Shown piece by piece: positions 1-51,323 of a stretch of DNA of 51,643 nt (the first letter of the stretch is position 1; every line of letters starts with the position of its first letter). Origin of the DNA: Escherichia phage egaa; the sequence record NC_049852.1; one strand, 5' to 3'. The position numbers were made by a program, and so were the translations under genes. The notes beneath the pieces were generated by a model. The model was not told the origin of the DNA, made no database searches, and saw only the letters and a program-made list of their open reading frames with translations.

Positions 1-406
1 CAAGTGTTTCATATTCATCTGGCGAGTAGTTCGCTAGGTTTGGTGAGACCTTAAGCATCGACTCAGCAACCTGGCGTTTTGCTTTCGCTACAGCCTTCTC
101 AAGCGCGGCCTTGTTGTACACCCTGCGATTCGGCGCACTAACAATAGCCACATCAAAGTAATTTTCTCCGAAATATTCGCTATCAGGGCCGTAAGGTTTC
201 TTTGAGACTGAAACTCTCCCCTTCTCCGCCACTTCTGGAACGCGCCCCATAATCTGACGGATATATGATCCAGCATTGCTGGCTGACTTCTTGCCCTCCA
301 GGTGCTGCCTTACCCATCTTTCAGGTATCTGGATCGATTCGTGCAATCCAGATGCGAGCGCAATCGCAACCTTGCGAAGCTCATTTGTAAATACAGATTC
401 ACTCAT
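1..406 (-). CDS. hypothetical early protein, N-terminal part (ORF runs off window start; absent from ORF track)
   Basis: ATG at 406-404 preceded by AGGAGG (rc of 411-420); minus frame open to position 1 (about 135 codons, MSESVFTNELRKVAIALASGL...). In frame with the open reading frame at the window end if the sequence is circular. Confidence 0.55.
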   Translation of the reverse strand, partial: MSESVFTNELRKVAIALASGLHESIQIPERWVRQHLEGKKSASNAGSYIRQIMGRVPEVAEKGRVSVSKKPYGPDSEYFGENYFDVAIVSAPNRRVYNKAALEKAVAKAKRQVAESMLKVSPNLANYSPDEYETL

Positions 407-1082: not shown

Positions 1083-1592
1083 ATGAACATCAGCAAAACC
1101 ACTTTCAACTTTGCAAAGCGTCACGGTCTGGATCTGACTGTTGAGGATTTTGGCGATGTTCTGCAACTCTGCATTTGGGAAGCGGATAACGATTGCGAGT
1201 GGCTTTGCTCTTATCGTATCAATTACGATTGCTTAACCTGGCACGACAATATCTATCTGCCGCAAGAAGTGAAAGAGGAATTGCCAGCAACCATCAACAA
1301 CGAAGTTTTTTTTGCGCAAAGTCCTGAAGTTTATTGCCGAGGAGATCAAGAAATGATTAGTGAAGTGGATTTTGAACTTGCAGAGGCCCAGGTAAGGGCC
1401 AAAAAGATGGGGTTGCGGATCTTGACGGAAACAGTCGAGTTCCCGTCGATGCCGTTCGCATCATTCCATAAAGTCACCGTATTAAGTCGCAAACGCGAGT
1501 GTAACGCTCTAATACCTGTCGGTGATGATAAACGCATGGCTAAATTCATTAACGAGTCATGTGATGTTCTGAAGGCTGTTAAACACGGTTAA
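1083..1592 (+). CDS. hypothetical early protein (169 aa)
   Basis: ORF track; RBS caGGAGatagcaATG; downstream of promoter element. Confidence 0.7.
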   Translation: MNISKTTFNFAKRHGLDLTVEDFGDVLQLCIWEADNDCEWLCSYRINYDCLTWHDNIYLPQEVKEELPATINNEVFFAQSPEVYCRGDQEMISEVDFELAEAQVRAKKMGLRILTETVEFPSMPFASFHKVTVLSRKRECNALIPVGDDKRMAKFINESCDVLKAVKHG

Positions 1593-3497: not shown

Positions 3498-3718
3498 GCC
3501 AGGACGGATTTTTTGAGCGACTGCAAAAAGCGGAAGATGCTGGGCTGAATAAAGAGGCTGCTCTTGAAGTTGCATATAAGATCAGGACACTTGATGATGC
3601 GTTGGGTGAAATGGATATGGAGCATGAATGCGGTGCTGCATTTGCAGATCCAACGATGATTGTTAATGATTGCGGCTGCAATTTTGATCCTAACTGTCCG
3701 CGATGCTTTCCGTTTTGA
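3494..3718 (+). CDS. hypothetical Cys-rich protein (74 aa)
   Basis: ORF track; RBS AGGAGcttatgaaATG; C-terminal CGCNFDPNCPRC. Confidence 0.65.
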   Translation: MSQDGFFERLQKAEDAGLNKEAALEVAYKIRTLDDALGEMDMEHECGAAFADPTMIVNDCGCNFDPNCPRCFPF

Positions 3719-3727
3719 GGTGATGAA

Positions 3728-4438
3728 ATGTATAAGGGTTTAATTTTCTCTTTGTTTGATGGATCTGGTAAAGCCGTTAAAGATTGGGCTGATGCTGGAT
3801 ATAAATGCATTTGCTTTAATTACGATGATGCTGATCACGGTGATTACCACTCAGTGCGCATAATCCATGACAATATCTTTTACGTTAACGCGTGGATTGA
3901 TGATCTATTCAAATATACCGCAAAACTTGAAAATTGGGGTAAGCCTGATTTTATTATGGCGTTCCCTCCATGCACTAACCTTGCAAATAGCGGATCTCGC
4001 CATTGGGCTAAAAAACGCATTGAGAATCCATCGTTCCAGGATGAAGCCGCCGACACTTGCAAAATAGCGGCGCAAATTGCTGATTATTTCGGTGTTCCGT
4101 ACATGATAGAGAATCCTGTAGGCAAGCTGTCAACGCTATGGCGCAAGCCTGATTATACGTTCCATCCGTGCGATTATGCTGGCTATCTGCCGGAAGATGA
4201 TAAACATCCCGACTTTCCTGATATTATTCCGGCACGGGATCGGTACTTTAAGAAAACATGCCTTTGGACTGGAAACGGATTTGTTATTCCTCCGCGCGCA
4301 ACAATCATCCCTAAAGATGGCGACAAGGATAATCCTGGTTGGGCCAAAACTGGCGGAAAATCGTCTCGCACAAAGATGATCCGCTCCCTCACACCGCGCG
4401 GTTTTGCTCGCGCCGTCTTTGAAGCAAACGCAAAATAG
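3728..4438 (+). CDS. putative DNA methyltransferase (cytosine-C5-like motifs)
   Basis: FSLFDGSG (FxGxG AdoMet motif), FPPC (Pro-Cys catalytic motif), MIENPVG (ENV-like); short for a C5-MTase, family call by motif only. Confidence 0.5.
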   Translation: MYKGLIFSLFDGSGKAVKDWADAGYKCICFNYDDADHGDYHSVRIIHDNIFYVNAWIDDLFKYTAKLENWGKPDFIMAFPPCTNLANSGSRHWAKKRIENPSFQDEAADTCKIAAQIADYFGVPYMIENPVGKLSTLWRKPDYTFHPCDYAGYLPEDDKHPDFPDIIPARDRYFKKTCLWTGNGFVIPPRATIIPKDGDKDNPGWAKTGGKSSRTKMIRSLTPRGFARAVFEANAK

Positions 4439-4478
4439 CACTTTTTGTTAAAAGCCAGGTGTAAAAGCCTGGCATAAT
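4434..4478 (+). promoter_or_regulatory. conserved 20-bp element + 22-nt spacer + CATAAT
   Basis: aatagcactttttgttaaaa 4434-4453 with TAG stop 4436-4438 inside; GC hairpin gccagg-tgtaaaa-cctggc in spacer. Confidence 0.6.
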
Positions 4479-4509
4479 CACTTCACCGAAACGAAAGGAG
4501 AAATAAACG

Positions 4510-4896
4510 ATGAAAGTTATCTGCAATAAAACCAACGTTTTGATGAGCGGTCGTTATAAAGCTGTATACGAAAAAATTGCTGGTAGCGATGATGTGATCG
4601 AGTTGGAACAATTCCAGGTAAAGAGCATTACAAAGGGTAGCAAGTGGCAAAACGCTGTTGAGTCTGACTATCGTCATATCAAGACAAAAACAATTAAATG
4701 CACATTTGTAGATCACAAGATCCCGTGCAAAAAGCATTTCAAAGAAGGAAAGCGCTACCAGATTGAGCAAGGGCGCGCGCTTGGTGCTGTTGCTGGTTAT
4801 GTTTTTGATGAAGCTGGCGACCGCTGGACGCTATACCGCGAAGAAGTAGGATTTTCCGCTGGTGGCTGTCATTTATTTGAGGCTATGTATAAGTGA
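4510..4896 (+). CDS. hypothetical early protein (128 aa)
   Basis: ORF track; RBS aaAGGAGaaataaacgATG. Confidence 0.7.
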   Translation: MKVICNKTNVLMSGRYKAVYEKIAGSDDVIELEQFQVKSITKGSKWQNAVESDYRHIKTKTIKCTFVDHKIPCKKHFKEGKRYQIEQGRALGAVAGYVFDEAGDRWTLYREEVGFSAGGCHLFEAMYK

Positions 4897-5114
4897 TCAA
4901 GGCTGAATATCGCTATAAGGTGACTCATTCAGCAACAAAAACCTTCAAGCATGGCGATATAGTCAGGCCAATAAAGAAAACGATGGTTGGATGGCTGATT
5001 GGTCTTTCTTACCACAAATCACTTTATTTTGATTTTGCTGATTCCGTAACCGCGCATTGCCATAGCGCAAGGGAACCAGAAAAAATCTTAGTTAGCATAG
5101 AGCGGATCAAATAG
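4893..5114 (+). CDS. hypothetical early protein (73 aa, GTG start overlapping upstream TGA)
   Basis: ORF track; GTGA overlap; TAG stop inside next element. Confidence 0.5.
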   Translation: MIKAEYRYKVTHSATKTFKHGDIVRPIKKTMVGWLIGLSYHKSLYFDFADSVTAHCHSAREPEKILVSIERIK

Positions 5115-6769: not shown

Positions 6770-7162
6770 ATGTTTCTTCTGGATCTGTATCGCTGGTGTG
6801 AGTCATTCGAATGGTTTACGCGTCAACATATAGCAAAATTTATCTTTCAGCATAGAGAATGTGAGCGGCTCGCAAGGGCCGCAGGATTTACGCCGAGAAT
6901 GTTTGCTACTGCCGTTTCAAAAGAGTTTTGCGCAAGAATGATGACCGCTGGTTATCTTGATGGAGTTGGTGGAAAGTTCTGGTGTAAGAAAGGATCCGCA
7001 AATCGCCCTTTCTCGTTTGAACTTTACAGCCTGGAAGGTATGCAAAACGAATGGGTTAGGGATGTTTTACGGATCGGAGAAATGAGCGATGAAGAACTGT
7101 TTACGTCAAATGCTAATAGACAAAATATTGAAGTTCTGCGCCGTAAGTTCAATCTCACATGA
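6770..7162 (+). CDS. hypothetical early protein (130 aa)
   Basis: ORF track; start 3 nt after upstream stop. Confidence 0.6.
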   Translation: MFLLDLYRWCESFEWFTRQHIAKFIFQHRECERLARAAGFTPRMFATAVSKEFCARMMTAGYLDGVGGKFWCKKGSANRPFSFELYSLEGMQNEWVRDVLRIGEMSDEELFTSNANRQNIEVLRRKFNLT

Positions 7163-7283
7163 AGACTTCATGCACGCAATGTTAACGCTAATTCATTCTG
7201 ACATGCGAGCGTTTAACATATCAGAGCATAATTTGTGTGATGAGGACGGCGTTTTGTTGGTTACTGTAAAGCGTATCGAATAG
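7089..7283 (+). CDS. possible overlapping small ORF (64 aa) ending inside promoter element
   Basis: ORF track; overlaps 6770-7162 by 74 nt; GGAG 10 nt upstream; its TAG is the TAG of the next element; true start uncertain. Confidence 0.3.
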   Translation: MKNCLRQMLIDKILKFCAVSSISHEDFMHAMLTLIHSDMRAFNISEHNLCDEDGVLLVTVKRIE

Positions 7284-7323
7284 CACTTTTTGTTAAAACT
7301 CCCGATCTCGTATCGGGTATATT
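7279..7323 (+). promoter_or_regulatory. conserved 20-bp element + 22-nt spacer + TATATT
   Basis: aatagcactttttgttaaaa 7279-7298; hairpin cccgat-ctcgt-atcggg in spacer. Confidence 0.6.
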
Positions 7324-7356
7324 TGTTTCATCGGAACGAATATGAGGATTTTAAAA

Positions 7357-10469: not shown

Positions 10470-10500
10470 TTTTATTTCCTCATGTTCGTTTCGATAAAAT

Positions 10501-10546
10501 AATTATGCCCGACACAAGGCCGGGCGTTTTAACAAAAAGTGCTATT
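10501..10546 (-). promoter_or_regulatory. conserved 20-bp element (minus orientation) + 23-nt spacer + ATAATT
   Basis: rc of 10527-10546 = aatagcactttttgttaaaa; contains TAG stop of 10542-10781; hairpin gcccggc-cttgtgt-cgggc in spacer; leader CGAAACGAA...GAGGA. Confidence 0.6.
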
Positions 10547-11487: not shown

Positions 11488-11520
11488 TTCTTAATTACCT
11501 GTTGCTTGTTGAACTGGTGT

Positions 11521-11566
11521 TATTATGGCGCAATCCTTCGCGCCTGTTTTAACAAAAAGTGCTATT
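11521..11566 (-). promoter_or_regulatory. conserved 20-bp element (minus) + 23-nt spacer + ATAATA
   Basis: rc of 11547-11566 exact 20-mer incl. TAG stop of VRR-NUC gene; hairpin ggcgc-gaaggatt-gcgcc; ATG of dam 60 nt downstream. Confidence 0.6.
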
Positions 11567-14007: not shown

Positions 14008-14040
14008 TCTAAAACCTTTGAGTAATGCCATTTGGCGTGT

Positions 14041-14084
14041 ATAATACACAATCATTAAATCATCGTTTAACAAAAAATGCTATT
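14041..14084 (-). promoter_or_regulatory. element variant (minus) AATAGCATTTTTTGTTAAA + 21-nt spacer + TATTAT; overlaps a plus-strand TATAAT
   Basis: rc of 14066-14084; minus -10 TATTAT = rc of 14041-14046, plus TATAAT at 14039-14044: back-to-back divergent promoters for helicase and 14097 gene. Confidence 0.5.
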
Positions 14085-14096
14085 GGAGAATGAATA

Positions 14097-14570
14097 ATGA
14101 AAGAGCAACGAATCGCAGTATCAACAGGCAAGATTGACAAGCGCACAATTAATGGCAATAACGGAACAAGACGAGGCAAGGATAAGAAGAAGCGCAAGCG
14201 ACCGACAGGTTATTATGTTCTAAAAGATGAGGTGCGTGCCGGGCTAAAAGCGCGACTTGATATCCTTATTGAGTATTACGGAAGTGTATCAGCAATGGCA
14301 AAACGTCTTAACGTTAGCCAGCAAACTGTAAATCAGTGGCGCGTTCGCGGTATGATTTCAGCCGCTGGCGCTCAAAAGGTGCATAACGATTACAAAAAAT
14401 ATGGCTGCCAAGGCTATCGCGCGTCATTCTGCCGTCCAGATCTGCGATTTGATTCCAATGGTAAACCTCTCACAAAGAGATGTGATAAGCGTGAAATGTT
14501 GCGAGTGGTAAGAATGTCAGATTATGAACCTGGCGGATTCCTGTATAAACCTGAAAGCACTAATTGCTAA
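14097..14570 (+). CDS. HTH DNA-binding protein (XRE/Cro-like helix-turn-helix)
   Basis: SVSAMAKRLNVSQQTVNQWRVRGMIS helix-turn-helix; basic N-terminus; RBS GGAGaatgaataATG. Confidence 0.6.
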   Translation: MKEQRIAVSTGKIDKRTINGNNGTRRGKDKKKRKRPTGYYVLKDEVRAGLKARLDILIEYYGSVSAMAKRLNVSQQTVNQWRVRGMISAAGAQKVHNDYKKYGCQGYRASFCRPDLRFDSNGKPLTKRCDKREMLRVVRMSDYEPGGFLYKPESTNC

Positions 14571-14624: not shown

Positions 14625-15557
14625 ATGAATAACGAAAACTTTATGGTTTATCAAAAGGAAGATGTTCTCCCATATATGCAAGGATTGTGGCGTGAGGCGC
14701 TACAAAGTATTTGCGGTCTTCCAAATGAAGTTTTTAACGGCAAGCATCAATCTTGCCCCCACTGCGGCGGAAAGGATCGCTTCAGATGGACGGATAAACT
14801 TGGCGATAAAAAAGGCGATGGCGGTGCGATCTGCAACGTGTGCGGTAATGATACCGGAATTGGTTGGATCATGAAGCTAACCGGAGAACCTTACAGCGAA
14901 GTGATCAATATTTTGGGCCGTTTTCTTGGAAAAGTTCCGCAGGACTATAGAATAAAGGCAAATAAGCGAGTATCTCGTGATTCTGGTTATTCGTTTGGGA
15001 AACAGGCAAGCCATGAATGCTGCGAGCGCGTTATGTCAAAAACACTAAAATTTGATCGCACGCCGTTAAGCACATATGAAGGAATATACCCGCCTGAAGA
15101 TGGTCATTATGATTGCGGCGTAAAAGATGGTCGATACATTCACGCGTTACCATGTTACCTTGTGCATTCAGATGATATTGATGATGAAATGTGCAATGTG
15201 CTTTTCATTGATGAAGAAGGTAAACAGTCTTTTCTAGCAAAGGACTACACGCGCGGGTCGATTGTGAGAACAGGAAGCACAGATAAGACGATCTATCTTT
15301 GCGTTGACTGGATTGATGCGCAACATATTCACCTTGCAACTGGACAAGAGGTTTGGGCCTGTTTTGATGCAACTAACATTGAGATTGTGGCTTACAGGTA
15401 TAAAGGCAACAGAAGAATGCGAGTTGTCTGTAAGAGCACAGATCGTGACGCTATCATAGCTGCCGAGGAAAGAGGTCTTGAAATTATGATTCCGATTAAT
15501 GATAATTACAGGAAAGGGATAGAGAGGAAGGTTTACAAACCTGAATCTCTTCTCTAA
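14625..15557 (+). CDS. DNA primase (T7 gp4-like zinc ribbon)
   Basis: CPHCGGKDRFRW...CNVCGND zinc ribbon typical of phage primase N-termini; in-frame ATG at codon 6 with GAGGTG upstream (track start TTG). Confidence 0.7.
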   Translation: MNNENFMVYQKEDVLPYMQGLWREALQSICGLPNEVFNGKHQSCPHCGGKDRFRWTDKLGDKKGDGGAICNVCGNDTGIGWIMKLTGEPYSEVINILGRFLGKVPQDYRIKANKRVSRDSGYSFGKQASHECCERVMSKTLKFDRTPLSTYEGIYPPEDGHYDCGVKDGRYIHALPCYLVHSDDIDDEMCNVLFIDEEGKQSFLAKDYTRGSIVRTGSTDKTIYLCVDWIDAQHIHLATGQEVWACFDATNIEIVAYRYKGNRRMRVVCKSTDRDAIIAAEERGLEIMIPINDNYRKGIERKVYKPESLL

Positions 15558-27800: not shown

Positions 27801-27834
27801 GCTTTTTCACCTTTTGTGCTATTTGATTTGTTGA

Positions 27835-27868
27835 ATTATACGGGCAAAAAAAAAGCCGCGCAACGCGC
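27835..27868 (-). promoter_or_regulatory. terminator hairpin with T8 followed by TATAAT (putative promoter for J)
   Basis: minus strand cgcgcg-ttg-cgcggc + TTTTTTTT then TATAAT (rc of 27835-27840); approximate. Confidence 0.4.
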
Positions 27869-27880
27869 GACTCTTTTATA

Positions 27881-30368: not shown

Positions 30369-33037
30369 CCCCGCTTAGACATAACAAATTCGTAAACTTC
30401 CCCACCCTGCGTACAGGAACGCTTAATCATATCAGTGAAAATCATTTTTACGCCAGTCTCTAACCCCTTCGGATCGTTTCCGTTATTAATATCAACGCTA
30501 ATCCCACCAATATTAAGGTTTGTTGCTCCTGATGAAACGCCGCCGCCAGTGTATGAAGTGCCGCCAACAACGCCGCCATTTGCATAACCGCGCATCATTT
30601 TGTAAAGGTTTCCAACTCCGATCCGCTTCGTGGCCTCCTTCGTCATGACAAACTCGCCTTTATGAACAACACCTGCTGGCTCATACTTCCCGCCGTCGCC
30701 AGTGTATCCACCAGTTGCAAATCCAACATTTTTAAGAAGGCTTCCAATCGTCCAAGTGTCACCGCCAATCGCACCGGATATGGCATTAAAGATAACCATC
30801 TTTGTGATCATCTGGATAATCATTTGGATGATTGACGTTGCGAAGCTCTTAAAGTTTGCCTTGCCTGTTGCAAGGAATGTAGCCATTTGGTTGGTTAGAC
30901 CGTTGAGCGCCTCGCTTGCAATATCTTGCACGTTGCCGTACATATCCATTGCATCTTGTCCGTAAACCTCCCATGCGTTTTTCGCTCCTGCAATCCAGTT
31001 ACTTCTAAGCTGATCTTCAGTGTCGTAATACTCCTTCAGCTTTGCTTCCATCTGCTGATAAATTTCATCGTCGATACTACCGCCGCCAGCAACATAATCA
31101 GTTCGCAACTTCTTCAACTCAAGCTCTCGCTGGATTTGCAGATCTGTAGCTCCAGACTGTCGCAAGTTCATAGCGTCAATAGCATCTGATGTTTGCTGAA
31201 TGAATTTAAGCCCTTCCTGGTATTGCTTGTTCTTTCTTTGTTGTAAAACAATCTGATCGCCTATCTCGGCCTTTTCTTTTGCCATAGCAATAACTGCTTT
31301 TTGCTCGTTTAGTAACGCCTGTTCAGCCTTTGTCAGCTTGCGTTTGCTTTGCGCTTCCTCCAGGATCTGGATCTGCTTTTCAATGCTCCACAAAGATTGC
31401 CTCTGGCGTGAAATAACATCATTTACAGTTCGGTGCTCTTTCAGCGTTTCAAGTTGCGCCTTGAGAACATATAGCTCCTTATCAAGCTGCTCTGTTGGTG
31501 CTTTTACAACTCCACCAACTTTTTCCTTTTGCTGCTGCGCCTTCTTCGCCTCTTCAAGCTCTTTTCGCCTGAACTCCACGTTCTCAGCCGCTCGCTTTTT
31601 CAACTCTTCGTCTGCTGTCCTTGCTACGTTCTTCTGATCCTCTATGGCTTTGTTTAAAGCCTCTTGCGCCGCTCGAACTCTGTTTAAGGAAAGGTTTTCT
31701 CTGTCGATGCGTGCTGCTCGTTCCGCCATATCCTTATTCGCATCTTTTACAATCTTTCCTATATCCTCATAGGTGTTCTTCGCAAATTGCAGCATTGGAT
31801 TCACATAACCAAGCTCTTTCCCCAGCAGCCCGCCGGACGGTGAAGCATAATCACGTTTTGCTTTTAAGACCGCATACCATGAATCGCCAAGCTCAAGAAC
31901 TTTGTTTTTGTGATCAGCAATTTCATTGTTAAGACTTACAAAACTTGATGCGTTTTTGTATTCGTTTACTTTTGCCTTTGCTTCGTCATAGGTAAATCCA
32001 ACATCGACGAGTTTTTGTATAGCCTCGCTTGCTCCATCCTTAGTGCTTATGTAAGCCTTTGCGATATTGTCTGCGCTCTCTCCTGTCTTGTCAGATAGCG
32101 CCTGGATTCCAGTTGCGATCCGCTCTGCAAACTCACCGGAAAGACCTGTTGCATCCTGAACGGTTTTTGTGATCTCCTTCAGTTGTGCGTTGGCTTTGTA
32201 AGCGTTATATGCTGCATACCCAAGAGCACCAGTCAGCGCCGTCATTCCAACACTTAGCGGCGTGACAAATGTCATTAGCGCTTTAAAAGTATTAGCAACA
32301 CCGCCGAATGAGTCCTTGATTTGCCCACCCTGCTGGATTGCGATCATCCATACTGGCATACCTGAAGCAAGAGAAGTAACAACGTCAGTGATCTGCATTG
32401 GCAATTGCGCCATTGCTTGCTTGTACTGCCCCATAGAAACGCCAAGTTTTGAGGCTTGTTTTTCCTGCTCCTTCATTTTTGCAATAAATGGCGCTGCCTC
32501 TGCACTAACTCCAAGTTGTGCGGCTCTCATTTCGACAAGCTCTGATTTTGTTTTTTCCGCTGCGTCAGCTTGCGCCTGCAATGCCGCAATAAACTTTCTT
32601 GCCTCAGACTCTGCCCTTGCCTTGTTTTTTGCTTCCTCAAGCGCCGCGCGGCCTTCTTCAGTTAGCGCCTTTTTAGTTGCGATCAGTTTGTTTTGCTGCG
32701 TCTCAAGAATTGATCCTAACTCAAAGAATGTATCATCCGGCACAATTCCTTTTTTCCAAAGCGCATCAAGCTGTGTTGCTGCCTGGCGCAACTTATCCAT
32801 TTTGCTTGCTGTCGGATCTATTGCCGACTGAATTGCTTTAAATTCTTGCTTCTGCTTTGCCAATTCCTCAGCCAGTTGTTTGGCTCTTTGTCTTGCAACA
32901 ACCTCTGAATCAACAAAACTCTCAACGCTTCCCTTTGCGTCGTCGTTTGCCTTCTTGAATTGCTGCAAAGACTTTACAGCATTGTTGAGTTGAGAAACAT
33001 CAACCCCAAGCGTCAAGCCTGCGTATTGTTCTGACAT
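30365..33037 (-). CDS. tail tape measure protein
   Basis: 890 aa, long Ala/Gln/Lys-rich coiled coils, Gly-rich C-terminus; between G/GT chaperone and M; RBS tGGAGGattaataATG. Confidence 0.9.
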
Positions 33038-33076
33038 TATTAATCCTCCAGGTAATAAAAAAGCGCCCGTAGGCGC

Positions 33077-33397
33077 TTATTTTGAATGCATCATTTCAAG
33101 TGCTTTTTGCTCCATGATTCGCAAGTCGTTTAGCGCCATCTCGCGATCCTCAACCTTGTAAATCTCAAAAAGCATAGGCAAGACATTATAATCAAATCCG
33201 TAAGCGCCACCGCCAGAACATCTCCATTGCGTTTGCATTGCGCAAAATATATCCCATGATTGCATCATGCTTTCATCAAATATAACCTCTGGCGGATCTT
33301 CTCCTTCATAGTCTGCCCTTGTAAGGCCAACGGCCTCAAGCTCTGCATCTGTCGGCGGTTTCTGATAAAACAGGTAAACCGCCCTTTTTAGTTTTTT
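33077..33397 (-). CDS. T-extension of tail assembly chaperone, expressed as G-T fusion by programmed -1 ribosomal frameshift
   Basis: -1 frame is open from slippery heptamer A_AAA_AAC (33391-33397) to stop at 33077 and contains track ORF 33077-33268; G frame stops 1 codon after the heptamer. Confidence 0.75.
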   Translation of the reverse strand, partial: KKLKRAVYLFYQKPPTDAELEAVGLTRADYEGEDPPEVIFDESMMQSWDIFCAMQTQWRCSGGGAYGFDYNVLPMLFEIYKVEDREMALNDLRIMEQKALEMMHSK

Positions 33398-33705
33398 ACT
33401 CGCTGCCCCGCAAGCGCTTTCATGTATGCGCTAGTTAATCCGATTGCTGTTGCTGGGTAGTAATCAAGAAGCTGTTTAATATTTTCTTCGTTAAATTCAT
33501 CATCAAGATTCCAACCGGAAGCAAGGAAGGTGATCATTTCAACATCGCTCATTGGGGTATCTGACGTGTATCGCTCGTGAATCTCACTTGTTTTGCGGTG
33601 GCGAACTGTGAAGATAATTGTTTGATCTTCTCCGTTAGGCATTGCAAATTTTACTGGTAATTTAAAGTCAGGAAGCGGCCCAATCGTCAATTTCATTTTT
33701 GACAT
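33388..33705 (-). CDS. tail assembly chaperone (lambda gpG-like)
   Basis: 105 aa between major tail protein and tape measure; ends ...GQRVKN with slippery site at its last codons; RBS cAAGGAGaaagaaATG. Confidence 0.8.
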   Translation of the reverse strand: MSKMKLTIGPLPDFKLPVKFAMPNGEDQTIIFTVRHRKTSEIHERYTSDTPMSDVEMITFLASGWNLDDEFNEENIKQLLDYYPATAIGLTSAYMKALAGQRVKN

Positions 33706-33718
33706 TTCTTTCTCCTTG

Positions 33719-33737
33719 ATAGCACTTTTTGTTAAAA
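33719..33737 (+). promoter_or_regulatory. copy of conserved element (ATAGCACTTTTTGTTAAAA) in inverted orientation relative to surrounding late genes
   Basis: plus-strand copy inside minus-strand late operon, 14-32 nt upstream of the G gene start on the opposite strand. Confidence 0.4.
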
Positions 33738-33775
33738 GAATTGATTATGAATCGTGTAGCATGATTGTACAGTAA

Positions 33776-33800
33776 CAAAAAAAGGGGCGCAACGCCCCTT
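33776..33800 (-). terminator. intrinsic terminator after major tail protein gene
   Basis: minus strand ggggcg-ttg-cgcccc followed by TTTTTTTG. Confidence 0.75.
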
Positions 33801-33804
33801 GTGA

Positions 33805-34467
33805 TTATGCTACTTGAGAAGGTAGGAAGGTGAATCGACCTTTCAGTGATACAGACAGGGAAACAGTTTCCATTTCGTTAACTGTGGTCTGTGGGATTTC
33901 GTTAAACGAAAGGACACCAGCCCAGCAACGCATCTCTTTCGCTTTCGGTACATACATGCGAAGCGCTGTCACTTCACCGGATTCGTCTGCTGCACGAAGT
34001 AACGGATAGATCGCGTTATCGTATTCGTGCGCAAAAGTGTATGTCAGAGAAACGGCGCTCTTATAGGTAGGTAACTGCTGTTCCTGGTCGTCTGCCAAAC
34101 ACTGATAAGTATAGTACTGCTGTTCGCCGCCGTCCTGCGACAAATCTTGAACGCAAGGGATCTCAGTCCATGCATCAATTTTGGCAAAAGATGCAGTACC
34201 GCCAGACGGGAAAACGTTCTGATCAGTAGTATCTACACCTTCAAGAGTCACGCTTGTTTCTTCACCGTTAGCCTTTACACGCATAACACGATCAATCAGC
34301 TTGCCCCAAGAAGACGCAGTGATGATCACATAATCACCTTTCTTATACGCAGTGCCGCCAGATGCAACAGTGAAAACAGGATCTTTGGCGTTTGACACTG
34401 CTGTTGCTTGGATTTCGCCGCCTCGATTGCTCTCAACGAAAATTTGAGATCCATTTGGTAAATGCAT
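33805..34467 (-). CDS. major tail (tube) protein
   Basis: 220 aa directly upstream of G/GT chaperone pair; strong terminator downstream; RBS cAAAGGAGtaaaaattATG. Confidence 0.75.
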   Translation of the reverse strand: MHLPNGSQIFVESNRGGEIQATAVSNAKDPVFTVASGGTAYKKGDYVIITASSWGKLIDRVMRVKANGEETSVTLEGVDTTDQNVFPSGGTASFAKIDAWTEIPCVQDLSQDGGEQQYYTYQCLADDQEQQLPTYKSAVSLTYTFAHEYDNAIYPLLRAADESGEVTALRMYVPKAKEMRCWAGVLSFNEIPQTTVNEMETVSLSVSLKGRFTFLPSQVA

Positions 34468-34472
34468 AATTT

Positions 34473-34871
34473 TTACTCCTTTGTTTCAATTCGAACATAA
34501 AATCTTATTGGGAGAAGCCAGCCACTTTCACTCTTGAGCGGCTTGTGAACTCTTGCACCCTCATATATATAACCATTCTCCAGCATTTTACCATCGTAAA
34601 AGAATTGCGCAATCTCTTTAGCTAGAACGCGCGGCCTGTCAGTTCCGCAACCTGGTGGAAACACAATGCCAACCTGAATCATTCCGATATAAGAAACGCA
34701 TTTGCGATCCAATGACAAGTATTCTGTGTCAACTTCGGTATAGTCAAACTTCAACCACGGCGATCCGTCACCAGGTGGCGTAAACTCTACGTTTTCATAA
34801 GCGATCATGAATCTGCTCTCGTATTCAGTCGCCAGCGCCTTACGCGCCGATAGCATTAATTCATAGTGCAT
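34473..34871 (-). CDS. tail terminator-like protein (gpU-like position)
   Basis: 132 aa immediately upstream of major tail gene; positional inference. Confidence 0.5.
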   Translation of the reverse strand: MHYELMLSARKALATEYESRFMIAYENVEFTPPGDGSPWLKFDYTEVDTEYLSLDRKCVSYIGMIQVGIVFPPGCGTDRPRVLAKEIAQFFYDGKMLENGYIYEGARVHKPLKSESGWLLPIRFYVRIETKE

Positions 34872-35304
34872 TTTTAGCCCTCGACTCTTTTATTGCTTCA
34901 GCCATATATGAACGCAACTTAACGGCAACAATCCCAAGTACACCCGCTGGCGCTTGTTTTGAATGACCGTACTCAAGCGCGTTAGCATAAATAAGCATGT
35001 TAGAAAAATAAATGGCTCTTACTGCGCCACCACCTCGTAAAATCGCGTATATGGCGCGCTTTCCTTCCGCGATCGTTTTGTCTCCGTGCTTATCGTACTG
35101 GTTAAGCGCATACAATGGCGGCTTGTTTGCTGTTACCTGCCAGTTCGCACGGTAACGCCCAGTATCAACCGGAGAACGCTTAACAAGATCTGTATGCACT
35201 TTTTCGGCGAACAACTCAACGCAATCTTTCAGGCCATTATCAACGGCGTTTATCCACGCATCAATGTTGCCGTGAAATTCCCTTATCGTGTAGTTTTTAG
35301 CCAT
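34861..35304 (-). CDS. HK97 gp10-like neck/tail completion protein
   Basis: DTGRYRANWQV resembles the recalled HK97 gp10-family signature (D-T-G-x-L/Y-R-x-S/N-W); position in head-tail joining module. Confidence 0.55.
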   Translation of the reverse strand: MAKNYTIREFHGNIDAWINAVDNGLKDCVELFAEKVHTDLVKRSPVDTGRYRANWQVTANKPPLYALNQYDKHGDKTIAEGKRAIYAILRGGGAVRAIYFSNMLIYANALEYGHSKQAPAGVLGIVAVKLRSYMAEAIKESRAKNAL

Positions 35305-35668
35305 GTACAGAAATCCTTCTCAAAATAGGCCGATAAGCAACAGTGACATTGGTTTGTTTGATTGGTCTTGCTTCAACTACAACATATAATTCACCATCAA
35401 CATCAATATGATACCCGTTCTTAATTTCAACTTTATTGTTAAAAACTCCCAACTTATCGGTTACTCGTATTGTCTCGCCGTCAACCTCTCGAACTTTTGG
35501 GGATCGAATTAAACCCTTAATCATTACACTAATCTCTGGCTTTTCTACTTCTTCGCCTCCGATGATTTCAACGCTTCCACGCTGCGTTATGCACTTAAAC
35601 TCACCGTTGCCATCACTAAAGAAGTTAATTCCTTCGGTTGCCATTCTTGCGATCTCGTTATAGTTCAT
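35297..35668 (-). CDS. head-tail joining / head closure protein
   Basis: 123 aa; position; RBS tcGGAGGcgctgcaaATG; ATGA overlap with upstream gene. Confidence 0.5.
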
Positions 35669-36081
35669 TTGCAGCGCCTCCGAAATCCAGTCACAAGGCC
35701 AAATCCACCGCCTTTTTTTCTATTTAAAGTCTCATACATTTTGCCCCACGGAGTTTGTCTAATCTCTTTTCCGCTTGAATCTCCGGACACGCGATCAAAT
35801 GTCTGGCTAAATTCACCAGTCAGGGAAAATGACGCCACGCGCCGTGAGTAACTCTCTACGCTTTCCCCTTCTTGCTTCATAGCTCCATCAAGCGTCATAA
35901 GGTGCAAAGTATAAAGGGCAACCGCTTTTGGATATGATTCTTTAAACCGCTTCTTGCAAACAAACTCCTTTGCAAGCTCAATCCATGCCACCATTAAATC
36001 TGGATCAATCTGCTTCATCGGTGGCGCTAATTTCACGATTTGCTGCGTGATTTCTGCGTCAGTGAAAAATTCATCAACCAT
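35665..36081 (-). CDS. head-tail connector (adaptor) protein
   Basis: 138 aa; first gene of neck module; RBS tGGAGGaaacacaATG. Confidence 0.5.
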
Positions 36082-36128
36082 TGTGTTTCCTCCAGATATG
36101 ACAAAGGGCGCTTATAGCGCCCTCTTTA

Positions 36129-36401
36129 TTAATAGATGCCGCCGTCTTCAAGTTCGGCTTTGCTCTTGCCCTCTCGTGGGTCTTTTTTACGTTTGCTTGC
36201 TGCGCTCTGTTTGATTTCTTCGTTCAATGCGGAGTTATCTTTAACCTCCAGATCGCCTTTTGCAATTAGATATTCAAACGCGCTTGTTTTCAATTTTGAT
36301 TCTTCTACGTCAAACTCTTTGCCTGGATGATAATGCTCACCATCAACAATAATAAGGCATACGCCGGAAACCTTTAGCGTTACAGTTTTTTCTTTAGCCA
36401 T
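36129..36401 (-). CDS. hypothetical protein downstream of major capsid gene (90 aa)
   Basis: ORF track; RBS tGGAGGttatgaaATG right after capsid-gene terminator. Confidence 0.6.
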   Translation of the reverse strand: MAKEKTVTLKVSGVCLIIVDGEHYHPGKEFDVEESKLKTSAFEYLIAKGDLEVKDNSALNEEIKQSAASKRKKDPREGKSKAELEDGGIY

Positions 36402-36408
36402 TTCATAA

Positions 36409-36437
36409 CCTCCAATAAAAAAGGGAATCCAGTTAAG
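36409..36437 (-). terminator. intrinsic terminator after major capsid protein gene
   Basis: minus strand gggaatcc-ttaact-ggattccc followed by TTTTTTATT. Confidence 0.8.
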
Positions 36438-36457
36438 GATTCCCCAATGTTATACGA

Positions 36458-37432
36458 TTAACTTGATTTTTTCAAGCCAGTAATAAGCACTAGCGTAAAC
36501 GGACGGTAAATCGTCAGGCCAGTACATTTTGAAGTGCACGGAACTTTGAAATGCAGATCTTTTGGTTGCGCCGGAAGCATGTTAAATGCTTCTGGAATTT
36601 CGATCGACATATTCATTGGGTCTTTCTCATATACCAGGCAACCTTTAGTTCCAGTGCCATCAATATCCTCAAGCTCTGCGATTGAGTCGATGGTGATTCC
36701 GCTGTTTTGTTTCTGGAAGTATTCCAGATAACTTTCAGTGGTGTTTTCCATTCGAACGGAAAGAACCTTGCGCATAGACGGCGGAATCAAGATATTTGTT
36801 GCGCGGTGCTGACCATTGGTGATGGTCTGAATGGTTTCAATAGCCTTTTCCAGTTCATCAGATGCAGCCTGCGGGAACTTAGTGTTTTCATCATTACTTA
36901 ACCAGCCAGAAGACACGATCTTTGTCAGGTTAGGATGTTCGAACACCGAAAGAATCTTATGCGGCTTTGAACCCTTAAACACCAGGCGGTTAACTTCCTG
37001 ATCGTGAGCGTTTTGCGCTGCGTTTGCCTTGCGAGTGGAAAGGCTCTTACCAGTGCGCTGACCAGCCTTGATTTCGTCGATGGAGATCAAGAACGCGTTA
37101 CCCAAGCGGAACACTTTACCAAATTCGCTGGACATCAGTGCGTCAACGGTCGGCAGGTCGTCGGTATAATCAGCGATAATTTTTGCGTAACCAACCTTGT
37201 CAAACATCTGATATTCAAAAGTCTTATCAGTATCAGAAAGCTCATTAGTTACAGGGAATACACGAAGCGCTGAACCTGCCGGATATTCTTTCTCGTAAGC
37301 AGTTGAGCGGATCTTGTGAAGCTCTTGCGCCGTCCAGATACCCATATCGGACGCATCACCTTTAACGCCGCTAGTAGCCAGATAGCTAGAAACAATATCC
37401 GCATCTAGCTGATCAAATTTTTCTTTTTCCAT
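36458..37432 (-). CDS. major capsid protein (HK97-fold expected)
   Basis: 324 aa from ATG with RBS atatGGAGGaagaaaATG (track start is GTG 42 nt upstream); downstream of scaffold, followed by strong terminator. Confidence 0.75.
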   Translation of the reverse strand: MEKEKFDQLDADIVSSYLATSGVKGDASDMGIWTAQELHKIRSTAYEKEYPAGSALRVFPVTNELSDTDKTFEYQMFDKVGYAKIIADYTDDLPTVDALMSSEFGKVFRLGNAFLISIDEIKAGQRTGKSLSTRKANAAQNAHDQEVNRLVFKGSKPHKILSVFEHPNLTKIVSSGWLSNDENTKFPQAASDELEKAIETIQTITNGQHRATNILIPPSMRKVLSVRMENTTESYLEYFQKQNSGITIDSIAELEDIDGTGTKGCLVYEKDPMNMSIEIPEAFNMLPAQPKDLHFKVPCTSKCTGLTIYRPFTLVLITGLKKSS

Positions 37433-37477
37433 TTTCTTCCTCCATATATAAAGGCTGTTAGTATGTAACGCCACAAT

Positions 37478-37496
37478 GATAGCATTTTTTGTTAAA
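37478..37496 (+). promoter_or_regulatory. copy of conserved element (ATAGCATTTTTTGTTAAA) in inverted orientation, in leader region of major capsid gene
   Basis: plus-strand copy about 50 nt upstream (opposite strand) of capsid ATG. Confidence 0.4.
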
Positions 37497-37515
37497 CGTG
37501 CAACATAATTTTGTG

Positions 37516-37950
37516 TTATGCGCTAATGCTCACCCCGACAATATATGAATCATGATCAACCTTTACATGTTCGCCAGTAAAGATCCAACCGCTCAGTAAA
37601 TCGCCTTCACTGTATGCCGCATCTCCATCTTGCGTTACAAATACTTTATCTCCATATTCTGGCGCTTCGCTCTCAGAAGTTAAGCACCACACACTACCTA
37701 TACTAACCACATTAACGGGATCACCCTCCTCATATATGCACGAGTCCGGCGGCCTTACTGCCACGCCAATAACAAGACCCCCATTAACACTGGCTATTTT
37801 GTATCCATTTGTTGTATGTGATAGTCGCACAATCTTACCTGGCGCAATAAATTCATCTCCGCACACGAAAGATCCGTTAATCACCATTATTGAAGAATCG
37901 ACCATGCACCCTGGCGACTCAACGCCAACAATGACTGAATAATCACTCAT
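37516..37950 (-). CDS. putative capsid-associated/decoration protein (paralog of 37997-38509)
   Basis: 144 aa from ATG with GGAG upstream (track start TTG); Gly/Val-rich beta protein between scaffold and capsid genes. Confidence 0.45.
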   Translation of the reverse strand: MSDYSVIVGVESPGCMVDSSIMVINGSFVCGDEFIAPGKIVRLSHTTNGYKIASVNGGLVIGVAVRPPDSCIYEEGDPVNVVSIGSVWCLTSESEAPEYGDKVFVTQDGDAAYSEGDLLSGWIFTGEHVKVDHDSYIVGVSISA

Positions 37951-37977
37951 GAGAAACTCCAAATATAAAAAAGGCGC

Positions 37978-38000
37978 TCAGTGAGCGCCATATTTATTAA
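37978..38000 (-). terminator. intrinsic terminator
   Basis: minus strand ggcgctc-act-gagcgcc followed by TTTTTTATATTT. Confidence 0.7.
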
Positions 38001-38509
38001 ACTGATGAAACTGCAGGAACTTTTTGCACCTGAACCTCTACCAGATTCAAGTCTTGAAACTTGGTGAAATCACCAGTCGCGATCCAGTTTGTTTCGATAG
38101 TGCCAGGCCCGGTATCAACCTGACCATCCTCAGACAGTTTGATTGTAGCGCCGAACTCTGGCGCGGTGGCGTCTTTAGCCAACATCCAAACACGCCCTTC
38201 AGTCATTACGTTGATTCCGCCGCCAGATTCATAAATCATTCGACCGTCAGCCGAAGTTGTCTGGAAGTGAGATCGAATTGCAACGCCGTAAGCCTTGCCG
38301 CTTGCCGCCATCGGCTTAATTAGCTTATTGCCCATAGCATCAACGCCGCCATGCTGGACAGCCACACCAACAAAAACAGACTTATTCTGATTTCCTGCTG
38401 CATTCTCAAGAACACAAGCGCCATCAATATTATAAGCTGAAGTGTCAGAAACCTGACCAGGTAACGCACGAGACATTACAGCAAAATAACTTGCTCCAAT
38501 TGTAGCCAT
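37997..38509 (-). CDS. putative capsid-associated/decoration protein
   Basis: 170 aa; RBS GGAGaaataaacATG; followed by terminator; position between scaffold and capsid. Confidence 0.45.
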   Translation of the reverse strand: MATIGASYFAVMSRALPGQVSDTSAYNIDGACVLENAAGNQNKSVFVGVAVQHGGVDAMGNKLIKPMAASGKAYGVAIRSHFQTTSADGRMIYESGGGINVMTEGRVWMLAKDATAPEFGATIKLSEDGQVDTGPGTIETNWIATGDFTKFQDLNLVEVQVQKVPAVSSV

Positions 38510-41698: not shown

Positions 41699-41723
41699 AA
41701 AAAGGCTGGATTTACCAGCCTTT
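41699..41723 (-). terminator. hairpin + T-run between terL and portal
   Basis: minus strand aggctgg-taaat-ccagcct followed by TTTTTTATT. Confidence 0.6.
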
Positions 41724-41750
41724 GATTATATATTGGTTTGTCGATTCGTG

Positions 41751-43319
41751 CTATTTGTTCCGCAAACCTGCCAATTTTTTCATTCTTCCTACCGGATCAT
41801 CTGCCATGTTCATTTCAATGTTAACAGCATCAATGATGTTATCAACAATATCATCATGAGGATGCGAATCATCGAATGTAAACGCCGCAACTTCAGCCAG
41901 TATCTCAGCCAGCATAGGGTGGGATTCTGGAAGTGCTACGCGTCCGGCGCGCATTACTGGCGCTGCGTCCATTGCACGAGTAACCTTGTCTTTATCGCGC
42001 TGAACAGGATTGATCTTGATCATGATTTTTTTCGCTGCGCTCTGAATCAAGCCAGTGCCAGACGATTTATCTTCAACATGAATCCTTCTCAACGTTCCGC
42101 ATTCTTTATTGCGCTTCCAGCACTGATTAACGAACGCAACAAAATTAGTCTCAAGGTCTGGCGCTTCCCATTTTCCGCGAACACCATCAATGAAGTAAAC
42201 GCGATCTTTATACATCCCCCAATAACAGATCACGGAGTAGTCGTTAAGCTCCCCTGTTTTCTGCGCGGTATCAACCGTGATAAATGTATATTCAAAGCGA
42301 TCCGGTTTTGGTAGCGTGCATTTCTCGCTGCTTCCGTAATACTGAAACCACTCTGTTTTAAACACGTTGCCGCCAAGCGCAACAGGCTGTTGCTGATACT
42401 GACTAGCAAACGTGTACGGATCAGCATTTCGAAGTGCAAGTAATTCCTCCGCGCTTTCCTTAGCAGGCCAGAATGAATAATGAGCAACACCATCAATCAT
42501 TACTGGCTTACTGGACAAAACATCGCGATCAAACTCAGGCTTTAACCAATCAGGAAGCGTTTCGCGATATTCCTTAGTAACGAGCGCCGGAATACTGACC
42601 ACCTTAAACTGGATGCCGCCCATGCCGCCGTTTGTCATGAACCATGTTGAATCATTGACGTGTAGCCGTTGCTGGACCATTACGATTGGCGTGGTGTCCT
42701 TCATTCGACGTGATCGCACCGTGTTCTTTAGGCGCATGTGTCCGGCTTCGCGCTTCACCTTAGAAAGCATATCATCCGGCTTGTCTGGATCGTCAAGAAC
42801 CAGCATACCAGTAAATCCATCATCCATGTAGCCGCCACGCAGACCAGTAACCTGACCACCGATAGAACGCGAGTTGACTTGTAATTTAACCTTGCCGCCA
42901 TCTGTTACAATCAAATCCTTTGCACTAGCCTTTGCCAGCTTTCCAGGCCATAGCTCCTGCCATTCTGGAGAACCAATAATCTCTTTGATGCGGTTGCTAT
43001 TCTGCTGGACAAGGCCATCACTAAACGAAAGATTAAGATTTCGCACCTTCTTACTTTTCAATGACGCATAAGGTGACATGTGGATCGAGAATATCTCTGT
43101 TTTACCACTACCTGGCGTTATGTTGAAAATTACATTCTGTGACTCGCCTTTGATGATTTTTTCAACTTCGCTGCATAGGTAACTGAAATGCCAGTTTCCC
43201 AAGAACCTTTGCCCCTGGAGAAGTTGAAACCAAATGCGGATCATCTTTTCGAATGAATATTCGCTCATTTCCTTAACGGCGCGTTTTTGCGCCGCTGTTA
43301 AGTCTTCCCAAATCAGCAT
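41751..43319 (-). CDS. terL: terminase large subunit
   Basis: 522 aa; Walker A ITPGSGKTE; C-terminal nuclease-like region; start overlaps terS stop (TAATG). Confidence 0.85.
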   Translation of the reverse strand: MLIWEDLTAAQKRAVKEMSEYSFEKMIRIWFQLLQGQRFLGNWHFSYLCSEVEKIIKGESQNVIFNITPGSGKTEIFSIHMSPYASLKSKKVRNLNLSFSDGLVQQNSNRIKEIIGSPEWQELWPGKLAKASAKDLIVTDGGKVKLQVNSRSIGGQVTGLRGGYMDDGFTGMLVLDDPDKPDDMLSKVKREAGHMRLKNTVRSRRMKDTTPIVMVQQRLHVNDSTWFMTNGGMGGIQFKVVSIPALVTKEYRETLPDWLKPEFDRDVLSSKPVMIDGVAHYSFWPAKESAEELLALRNADPYTFASQYQQQPVALGGNVFKTEWFQYYGSSEKCTLPKPDRFEYTFITVDTAQKTGELNDYSVICYWGMYKDRVYFIDGVRGKWEAPDLETNFVAFVNQCWKRNKECGTLRRIHVEDKSSGTGLIQSAAKKIMIKINPVQRDKDKVTRAMDAAPVMRAGRVALPESHPMLAEILAEVAAFTFDDSHPHDDIVDNIIDAVNIEMNMADDPVGRMKKLAGLRNK

Positions 43320-47210: not shown

Positions 47211-47241
47211 GTTTCAAGTCCTCTCGTTGATTGGTGTTTGC

Positions 47242-47286
47242 ATTATAGCGAGGCATTGCGCCCCGCTTTTAGCAATTCGTGCTATT
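47242..47286 (-). promoter_or_regulatory. variant element AATAGCACGAATTGCTAAAA + hairpin + TATAAT
   Basis: rc of 47267-47286 incl. TAG stop of kinase gene; TATAAT = rc of 47242-47247; ATG of 46809-47210 57 nt downstream. Confidence 0.55.
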
Positions 47287-47872
47287 CAATCTTTGTGTGT
47301 TTCCACTGCACCGATTTGATGATCTCGTCAACAGTCTTTTCTGGCTCGCCATCAATCATTGTGAAGTCGTAATGCTTGACTCGTTGATGGTATCCGCTCA
47401 GGTCAATATAGTTTCGCGAATCTCCATCAAACGTGAATCCCTCGCGATGCAGTCGGCAAATGTGAACTTCATGGCCTGCCTTAACGAGCGGCTTGATTTC
47501 TTCAGGGAATCCGCCATCACTAATTACAACAGCCAAATCTCTGTACATCTCGTGTACTTGCTCAACCATGCGATTCCCAAAATATTGATCGCCAAAAGCT
47601 GGCTTCATAACTTCTTCGCTAATCCAGATCATGAATTGTCGCGGAGACTTGCCTTGCAAGATTGCTTGAGGCTTTTCTTTCTGCTCGCGGTCGTTATACA
47701 GATCAATGAACTCGTCATATCTGTAAACGCCAAGCATGGAGAATGCAATATCAAACATCGGCTGTTTAAACGACGCTTCAACCGCTGCGTAACGATGGCC
47801 CGTTAAGTATGCGGCAAGCGTATCTTTGCCAACTCCTGGCGGTCCGTTAAGGATGATAATGTCTCGTTTCAT
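47282..47872 (-). CDS. deoxynucleoside monophosphate kinase-like P-loop kinase
   Basis: Walker A ILNGPPGVGKDT; overall resemblance (recalled) to T4 gp1 dNMP kinase; in-frame ATG at codon 6 with GGAG upstream. Confidence 0.6.
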   Translation of the reverse strand: MKRDIIILNGPPGVGKDTLAAYLTGHRYAAVEASFKQPMFDIAFSMLGVYRYDEFIDLYNDREQKEKPQAILQGKSPRQFMIWISEEVMKPAFGDQYFGNRMVEQVHEMYRDLAVVISDGGFPEEIKPLVKAGHEVHICRLHREGFTFDGDSRNYIDLSGYHQRVKHYDFTMIDGEPEKTVDEIIKSVQWKHTKIE

Positions 47873-51246: not shown

Positions 51247-51277
51247 TTTTGTTTCCTCAATCTCGTTTCGATGAGGC

Positions 51278-51323
51278 TATTATGCCAGGTTTTGCGCCTG
51301 GCGTTTTAACAAAAAGTGCTATT
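51278..51323 (-). promoter_or_regulatory. conserved 20-bp element (minus) + hairpin spacer + ATAATA
   Basis: rc of 51304-51323 exact 20-mer; hairpin gccagg-cgcaaaa-cctggc; leader CATCGAAACGAGA...GAGGA. Confidence 0.6.

Follow-up and report, generated by a model that had tools for sequence, protein, structure and literature searches.

Reversed copies of a dispersed 19-base element at predicted late promoters of a T1-like Escherichia phage

The genome of Escherichia phage egaa (NC_049852.1; 51,643 nucleotides [nt], analysed at full length and referred to below as the window) carries 18 full copies of a 19-base element with the consensus AATAGCAY-N3-TTGYTAAA. Sixteen of these are co-directional with the next gene downstream; the only full copies opposed to their neighbours, 33718-33736 and 37478-37496, lie on the plus strand amid the late genes, which run on the minus strand from ~45000 to ~24000 in the order terminase, portal, head, capsid, tail, tape measure and tail fibre (by synteny with the annotations of phages aaroes and T1). 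An earlier reading of the bare sequence (the original prediction) had placed both copies, inverted, inside the late operon, one by the chaperone start and one in the leader of the major capsid gene, and our analysis bears this out. Its coordinates were exact for the capsid copy and one base off for the other, given as 33719-33737. The two copies and their adjoining genes are:

33718-33736, plus strand: reversed copy 1 (GATAGCACTTTTTGTTAAA; the tail copy), 12 nt upstream of the chaperone ATG (33705)
33388-33705, minus strand: tail assembly (tape-measure) chaperone gene (Pfam Phage_TAC_4, E=3.5e-30)
37478-37496, plus strand: reversed copy 2 (GATAGCATTTTTTGTTAAA; the capsid copy), 45 nt upstream of the major capsid ATG (37432)
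36458-37432, minus strand: major capsid protein gene

The 5-kilobase stretch round both copies shares 96-97% identity with Escherichia phages KarlJaspers, aaroes and vojen and with Shigella phage pSf-1, all of the genus Hanrivervirus (subfamily Tempevirinae, family Drexlerviridae, T1-like). To measure conservation, we compared 77 viral contigs anchored on the capsid gene (capsid protein identity 52-98%), plus the T1 genome. The 75 loci with DNA upstream of the capsid gene form the denominator for capsid-site counts, and "distinct contexts" are non-identical sequences: 39 for the capsid promoter, 43 for a capsid antisense -10 and 16 for the tail copy. The original prediction had named absence from close relatives as one finding that would speak against it; instead, 74 of the 75 loci have the capsid copy, 16 distinct contexts (from T1, which belongs to a different subfamily, Hanrivervirus and several other genera) have the tail copy, and T1 has both. 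The two copies look like functional sites and not like chance matches.

The element and its co-directional copies

A 19-mer search with up to three mismatches returned 15 copies, against 0.10 expected by chance, and three further copies with a different central triplet (3036+, 47268- and 49787-) complete the set of 18. Both reversed copies agree with the window consensus at 18 of 19 positions; their first base is G, as at 3036+, and A in most co-directional copies. The core is a near-palindrome, TAGCA-N5-TG(T/C)TA, which is imperfect in the TAGCA-N5-TGTTA form and perfect in the GAA-class core TAGCAcgaatTGCTA, found at 47268 and also in TLS, T1 and Webervirus-like phages. Between invariant arms sits a variable centre (TTT, GAA, AAA), a pattern that fits a dimeric helix-turn-helix protein.

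The 16 ordinary copies, which precede early and replication genes, share one layout, in which a TAnnnT hexamer (such as TATATT or CATAAT) follows the element at 19-20 nt and precedes a leader, a ribosome binding site and ATG. At a 20-nt spacing the dyad centre falls at about -42. Promoters with a -10 but no usable -35 normally need an activator at about -41.5 (class II; CRP/FNR-type, lambda CI-type). The ordinary copies have this class II make-up—a site near -41.5 and no -35 at usable spacing—and most also lack the TGn of an extended -10. Two other readings of these copies were rejected: TTGYTA as a -35 would leave a spacer of 22 nt, too far from the -10, and the reverse complements lack a -35 and offer as -10 a TATTnn mostly without the final T.

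Most ordinary copies also have a leader motif, CATCGAAACGA or CATCGACAACGA, ~8 nt past the -10 and before the ribosome binding site (for example at 1053-1063, 1930-1940 and 7331-7341); it recurs in T1. Many have, in addition, a GC-rich inverted repeat whose arms vary from copy to copy yet remain complementary, with no T-run after it. In some copies it lies entirely within the 20-nt spacer; in others, notably in T1, the -10 sits in the loop (GGGGTA..TATAGT TACCCC). Examples are as follows:

4435-4480, 7280-7325, 10482-10546, 11502-11566, 47222-47286 and 51259-51323: GC-rich inverted repeats in the window
1450-1500, 2269-2320, 3535-3585, 4344-4395, 4864-4915 and 47565-47633: GC-rich inverted repeats in T1 (L079)

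T1 (L079) further has an element copy at its far left end (103-120, minus strand) that is directed off the linear map and could reach right-arm minus-strand genes only via terminal redundancy or a concatemer junction.

Promoters at the capsid and chaperone genes

The elements of the capsid leader are:

37498-37503, minus strand: capsid -35 TTGCAC, one base upstream of the reversed element
37476-37484, minus strand: capsid extended -10 TGcTATCAT (TG 37484-37483, hexamer 37481-37476)
37453-37472, minus strand: leader hairpin and T-run, beginning 2-4 nt past the capsid -10

On the gene strand the leader reads TTGCAC-N16-TGcTATCAT, the pattern of a canonical sigma-70 promoter with an extended -10, with an A-tract (ACACAAAA) further upstream of the -35 and a predicted start near 37469. 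Read on the minus strand, the capsid copy makes up 15 of the 16 bases in the spacer and continues into the -10 as far as its fourth base; its dyad is centred at about -18. The claim in the original prediction that inverted copies cannot serve the surrounding minus-strand genes thus fails here, where the reverse complement of the element joined to TTGCAC forms the predicted sigma-70 promoter of the capsid gene.

This arrangement recurs in all lineages, which have on the minus strand the A-tract, TTGNNN, one base, TTTA(A/G)CAA...(A/G)TGCTAT, two bases and T. Among the 39 distinct contexts the -35 is TTGCAC (20), TTGAAC (8), TTGACC (6), TTGACG (3), TTGCTG (1) or TTGCGC (1), the TG of the extended -10 is present in every one, and the -10 is TATCAT (22), TATATT (10), TATTCT (5) or TATTAT (2), always TAnnnT. 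All four hallmarks of a sigma-70 extended -10 promoter (TTGNNN, a 16-18 nt spacer, TGn and TAnnnT) were therefore found in 39/39. The promoter is fully intact in 72/75 loci, down to ~53% capsid protein identity; the other three have a 1-nt indel and retain it with a 15- or 17-nt spacer. In the T1 GenBank record, the orthologous stretch (15062-15089) is entered as a predicted promoter, and 15095-15121, just past it, as a terminator.

An antisense promoter at the capsid copy was rejected: A2 and T6 of a hexamer at 20 nt coincide in only 2 of 43 contexts, and the recurrent TA at that distance comes from the stop codon that ends the cement/decoration gene upstream (Pfam XM1_gp53, Phage_cement). 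As far as its sequence tells, the capsid copy is the core of a sense capsid promoter and not an antisense promoter.

The leader hairpin has 8 pairs in relatives, 5 of them with compensatory changes, and the annotations of T1 and TLS list it as a terminator (T35 in TLS); in the window it is weak and degenerate, folding no better than shuffled controls. In the relatives it is a predicted terminator for read-through from the decoration gene. With the start site predicted within the 5' arm, read-through from upstream would terminate, and transcripts from the capsid promoter would lack the full hairpin.

At the tail copy, the following features surround the start of the chaperone gene, whose product is 57% identical to the T1 tape measure chaperone:

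33782-33800, minus strand: intrinsic terminator after the major tail protein gene
33787-33792, minus strand: sense -35 TTGCGC, in the terminator loop and descending arm, 17 nt from the -10
33764-33769, minus strand: TACAAT, the sense -10 for the chaperone gene, with 27 nt between it and the reversed element
33757-33762, plus strand: antisense -10 TAGCAT, exactly 20 nt past the element, as in ordinary copies

The order on the gene strand is the major-tail terminator, TACAAT 17 nt past TTGCGC, 27 nt, the reverse complement of the element, the ribosome binding site and ATG, with a sense start predicted near 33757. The -35 is TTGCNN at 17 nt in 15 of the 16 distinct contexts, and the -10 is TAAAAT, TAGAAT or TACAAT in all of them; the 27-nt distance between element and -10 is invariant, while the spacer sequence diverges. 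A promoter also precedes the chaperone gene in lineages without the element (TTGCGT-N17-TAATAT in TLS-like phages, TTGTGC-N16-CATAAT in Webervirus-like phages). Its retention there argues for an independent, family-wide chaperone promoter, which is predicted to restart transcription past the major-tail terminator.

On the opposite strand, TAnnnT follows the tail copy at 20 nt in 16/16 contexts. It does so as 11 different hexamers (TAGCAT, TAGAGT, TAGGAT, TACAGT, TAAGAT and others), mostly after TGn; with positions 1, 2 and 6 fixed and 4 and 5 free, this is the signature of a -10 under selection. The antisense transcript would start near 33769. The two -10 hexamers, on opposite strands, are separated by one base, and the predicted starts are divergent and 12 base pairs (bp) apart, with overlapping melted regions, so that the sense and antisense open complexes would exclude each other. 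The tail copy itself spans about +22 to +40 of the sense chaperone transcript, with its centre at about +31. Copies, conservation, both sense promoters and the architecture of the antisense promoter can all be read from these alignments.

The original prediction had suggested that the reversed copies drive short antisense transcripts, and by the TAnnnT hexamer 19-20 nt downstream, a criterion drawn from the 16 ordinary copies, this would fit the tail copy but not the capsid copy. As a general account—transcripts that pair with late mRNAs or collide head-on with late transcription—we consider antisense control unlikely. It has in its favour the complete predicted promoter (element, 20 nt, TGnTAnnnT) at the tail copy in 16/16 lineages, from which a transcript would cross the terminator into the major tail gene, and the reverse hairpin there folds well. 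However, the capsid copy lacks a conserved antisense -10, and the tail transcript would not overlap the adjacent chaperone mRNA. Nor is a defined small RNA to be expected, given that the T-run past the reverse hairpin on the antisense strand is not conserved among relatives, that an Rfam search of 33000-38200 gave no credible match, and that no open reading frame past the tail copy is conserved: a protein-coding gene there was rejected, since length, frame and start differ in each lineage. What is conserved of a cis-antisense RNA gene is thus its promoter, at the tail copy only.

The same leaders bear on a role at the RNA level, in which the reverse complement near ribosome binding sites would raise translation or serve as a protein-binding site on the mRNA. 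In the window, 1-2 nt do separate UUUAACAAAAAGUGCUAU from the Shine-Dalgarno sequence of the chaperone gene and of a regulator gene described below. Yet the distance from element to Shine-Dalgarno sequence at the chaperone gene ranges from 1 to 12 nt among relatives, which points to a constraint on promoter geometry and not on the mRNA; the chaperone leader RNA folds no better than shuffled controls; and the predicted capsid start leaves most of the element upstream, where it would not be transcribed. We regard this role as highly improbable.

TLS-like and Webervirus-like phages lack the tail copy but retain the sense promoter; apparent tail-site matches in Webervirus-like loci at ~+3140 were rejected as 2-mismatch matches in the start of the major tail gene (MHLPNGAK). 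In T4-type phages, cassettes of promoter and stem-loop shuffle genes, and the reversed copies might be likened to these, as now-neutral remnants of mobile promoter cassettes that ended up in the wrong orientation through insertion or recombination. Element and spacer do look like a module of ~46 bp within a chaperone leader that TLS-like and Webervirus-like phages have without the module, the distribution is patchy, and many dispersed identical 19-mers make good recombination substrates. Against this, the spacing to both -10s is invariant while spacers diverge, T, A and the final T persist in all 11 hexamers of the antisense -10, and the capsid copy is family-wide and merged base-for-base into its promoter. 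Leftover cassettes are therefore a very unlikely source, and the recombination footprints proposed in the original prediction find no support as a sufficient explanation of a position and promoter geometry conserved to the base between diverging flanks.

A candidate regulator and other late promoters with the element

A phage gene elsewhere in the window carries the element in its own control region:

14097-14570, plus strand: candidate element-binding regulator, 157 amino acids, with a Cro-like helix-turn-helix at residues ~54-91
14018-14084, no strand assigned: regulator/helicase control region, of the same layout in T1
14018-14045, plus strand: regulator sigma-70 promoter TTGAGT-N16-TATAAT
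14046-14041, minus strand: helicase -10 TATTAT, overlapping the regulator TATAAT with an offset of one base
14066-14084, minus strand: element copy, centred ~-42 with respect to helicase transcription and spanning ~+15 to +33 of the regulator leader

The 157-amino-acid protein, 60% identical to T1 gp56, matches the Pfam YdaS/P22_Cro models just under the cut-off (29.8 vs 30 bits), the Cro proteins of PDB entries 5w8y (E=2e-5) and 3bd1 (E=3e-4), and PHROG 2856, "transcriptional regulator". Homologues occur in 841 phage records, nearly all at >=55% identity, a conservation on a par with that of the element. Having its own sigma-70 promoter, the gene needs no activator. The divergent starts predicted for regulator and helicase (14034-14052) lie ~18 bp apart, and the element in the regulator leader adjoins the ribosome binding site, a layout that matches the chaperone gene in the window as well as in T1. 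Two marks of a Cro/CI-type operator were found: dyad symmetry in the site, and a phage-encoded helix-turn-helix protein of that type. This protein is most likely the binder, in what resembles the classic arrangement of an autoregulated regulator.

Alternatively, a host protein might read the element, with a fixed pool titrated as sites multiply, so that element promoters turn off and late promoters are released; we think this improbable. The near-invariance of the element across genera whose capsid proteins are only ~50% identical would fit a conserved host partner, and in our own comparison, made without statistics, the dyad arms agree with the published E. coli Lrp consensus YAGHAWATTWTDCTR at 11-12 of 15 positions. 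Lrp, however, is normally found on clustered phased sites, whereas the element sites are single; the centre of the element is unlike the AT-rich Lrp centre, and its asymmetric flanks (AA..C, AAAA) fall outside the Lrp consensus. Moreover, the phage regulator is equally conserved and appears autoregulated in the expected geometry.

Two further late promoters bear element copies:

41737-41755, minus strand: AATAGCACGAATCGACAAA, a degenerate co-directional copy at the terminase/portal junction, followed after 6 nt by TATAAT and with its dyad centred at ~-28
27805-27823, minus strand: co-directional half copy AATAGCACAAAAGGTGAAA in the tail-fibre (J-like) leader, at about +6 to +24
27863-27835, minus strand: tail-fibre promoter TTGCGC-N17-TATAAT, embedded in a terminator and preceding the half copy

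Many relatives have a full copy at the terminase/portal junction. The half copy includes the ribosome binding site of the tail-fibre gene and has orthologous sites in T1 and TLS (DR8). By their predicted positions (~-28 and ~+6), the portal and tail-fibre copies would be unable to activate.

These late promoters overlap terminators in two designs. In one, TTGCGC lies in the terminator loop and the -10 follows 17 nt on, past the T-run (chaperone, tail fibre); in the other, the -10 directly precedes a hairpin and the start lies in its 5' arm (capsid, portal). The overlaps are:

33764-33800, minus strand: chaperone promoter and terminator
27835-27870, minus strand: tail-fibre promoter and terminator
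37453-37481, minus strand: capsid promoter and hairpin
41701-41730, minus strand: portal promoter and hairpin

Of the readings in the original prediction, an orientation-independent regulator site is the one that best covers both reversed copies, given the near-palindromic core. We therefore favour, tentatively and with slightly less than even confidence, a model in which the 19-mer is the operator of a dimeric DNA-binding protein—most likely the Cro-like 157-amino-acid protein—that activates from -42 and blocks late promoters. The model draws on a copy number far above chance, the invariant geometry, the near-palindromic core, ordinary copies without a -35, the presence of a Cro-type regulator whose own gene bears the element in chaperone-like geometry, and the copies at other late promoters. 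From these features we infer binding, the identity of the binder, the direction of regulation and its timing.

Protein bound at about -42 of the 16 ordinary promoters would recruit RNA polymerase in class II style. At the capsid gene, where the site fills the spacer and -10 (centre -18), occupancy would exclude polymerase. At the chaperone gene the protein may draw polymerase into the antisense direction while itself occupying the sense leader at about +31. Late release might conceivably come about as replicating phage DNA titrates the protein.

Several points weigh against this operator model. It gives no account of how late repression lifts, and repressing the most-needed late protein would be odd for a fast lytic phage. 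In two loci (L019 and L025), a 1-nt insertion (GTGCTTATCAT) ~70 nt upstream of the capsid gene breaks the left arm of the element while TTGCAC-N17-TATCAT remains, so that these natural variants have lost the operator but not the promoter. The tail copy, missing as it is from TLS-like and Webervirus-like phages, is dispensable. Other proteins could be the binder: a host protein, or the window's homologues (6770-7162 and 4510-4896) of gp70 and gp73, two T1 proteins that are helix-turn-helix-like by HHpred, although no Pfam DNA-binding domain was found in either homologue. Element and regulator are both near-universal among relatives, which leaves no variation for a test of co-variation. Finally, our literature search returned no start-site, RNA-sequencing or binding data for any Drexlerviridae phage; in the one candidate transcriptome paper, RNA was sequenced from a T5-like phage only.

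A bolder extension, which we consider doubtful, is that one protein and one 19-bp site run the whole T1-like temporal programme: sites at ~-42 would activate, those at -18/-28 would occlude, those at +6 to +31 or with an opposed decoy promoter would block, and titration over ~20 sites per genome would throw the switch.

Known systems and the published repeat

The operators of lambda CI, P22 C2 and Cro are dyads bound by helix-turn-helix dimers; CI at OR2 activates PRM from near -42, and overlap with a promoter core represses. The element resembles them in its dyad, its Cro-like candidate binder and a regulator gene apparently controlled by its own site. It differs in belonging to a strictly lytic phage and in having ~20 single dispersed sites in place of clustered tripartite operators.

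Mor and C of phage Mu are small phage dimers on an imperfect dyad just upstream of the -35 position, at middle and late promoters that have a -10 and no -35. The 157-amino-acid protein, however, fits Cro/YdaS-type models and not the Mor family, and Mu is not known to have sites placed within sigma-70 core promoters. In phi29, the single protein p4 activates or represses host-polymerase promoters according to the position of its site and sets the early/late programme; in contrast to the polarity proposed here, p4 activates late and represses early, and its sites are clustered in one control region.

Bidirectional bacterial promoters, as Warman et al. are said to have described in 2021, have divergent starts 12-18 bp apart and -10s that are adjacent or overlap on opposite strands. 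The chaperone/antisense pair (12 bp) and the regulator/helicase pair (18 bp) conform to this spacing; unlike in such promoters, one partner would rely on an upstream element within the transcribed leader of the other.

The element itself is on record. A 2024 re-annotation of TLS (PMC11447400) lists it as a 21-nt direct repeat, aaATAGCACnnnTTGnTAAAA, in 18 intergenic copies, present also in T1, Rtp and Rogue1, with copies said to follow the direction of transcription ~76 nt before start codons. Stoperators, enhancer sites and UP elements were offered as guesses, and its function was listed as an open question (PMC11447400). Both reversed copies match the consensus of this TLS/T1-family repeat and are intergenic, but fail its published orientation rule, being on the strand opposite to the flanking genes. 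The supplementary table of the same paper in fact places DR7 (atatagcattttttgttaaac), the orthologue of our 37478 copy, on the negative strand within the positive-strand late region, just before the capsid gene, uncommented. PMC11447400 draws no link from the repeat to late promoters or to a binding protein, and our search for further papers on the element found none besides it.

That paper's comparison with the stoperators of mycobacteriophage L5 fits in part: in both, a single short site recurs at many scattered places, at times within transcribed leaders, from which transcription can, or in the case of the element might, be blocked. L5 stoperators, however, are asymmetric, lie in one orientation and serve the immunity repressor of a temperate phage, whereas the element is near-palindromic and mostly upstream of a -10, and its copies in the chaperone and tail-fibre leaders have opposite orientations, contrary to the definition of a stoperator.

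The repeat family and the predicted T1 capsid promoter were thus already known, while the link between repeat and promoters is new, as are the conservation across the family, the finding of an opposed promoter at the tail site and a unified operator model. The reversed copies show that, contrary to what was published, not every copy is aligned with transcription, and what was listed in 2024 as an open function becomes a concrete and cheap experiment on one protein, one site and three promoter geometries. If true, the whole-programme extension would answer the published question about the T1-family repeat. More broadly, the question addressed is how T1-like phages time early and late genes with host polymerase alone; Drexlerviridae are common, are notorious laboratory contaminants and are present in phage therapy collections.

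Two observations concern database records. About 20 GenBank entries titled "Campylobacter phage" (MG065638, MG065679, MG065681 and others) encode capsid and regulator proteins 97-100% identical to those of this E. coli Hanrivervirus, and are probably T1-like contaminants or carry misattributed hosts. In the aaroes annotation (L001), small head/tail proteins equivalent to window 35297-35668 and 37997-38509 are named "ribonucleoside-triphosphate reductase" and "zonula occludens toxin", labels that look like inherited misannotations.

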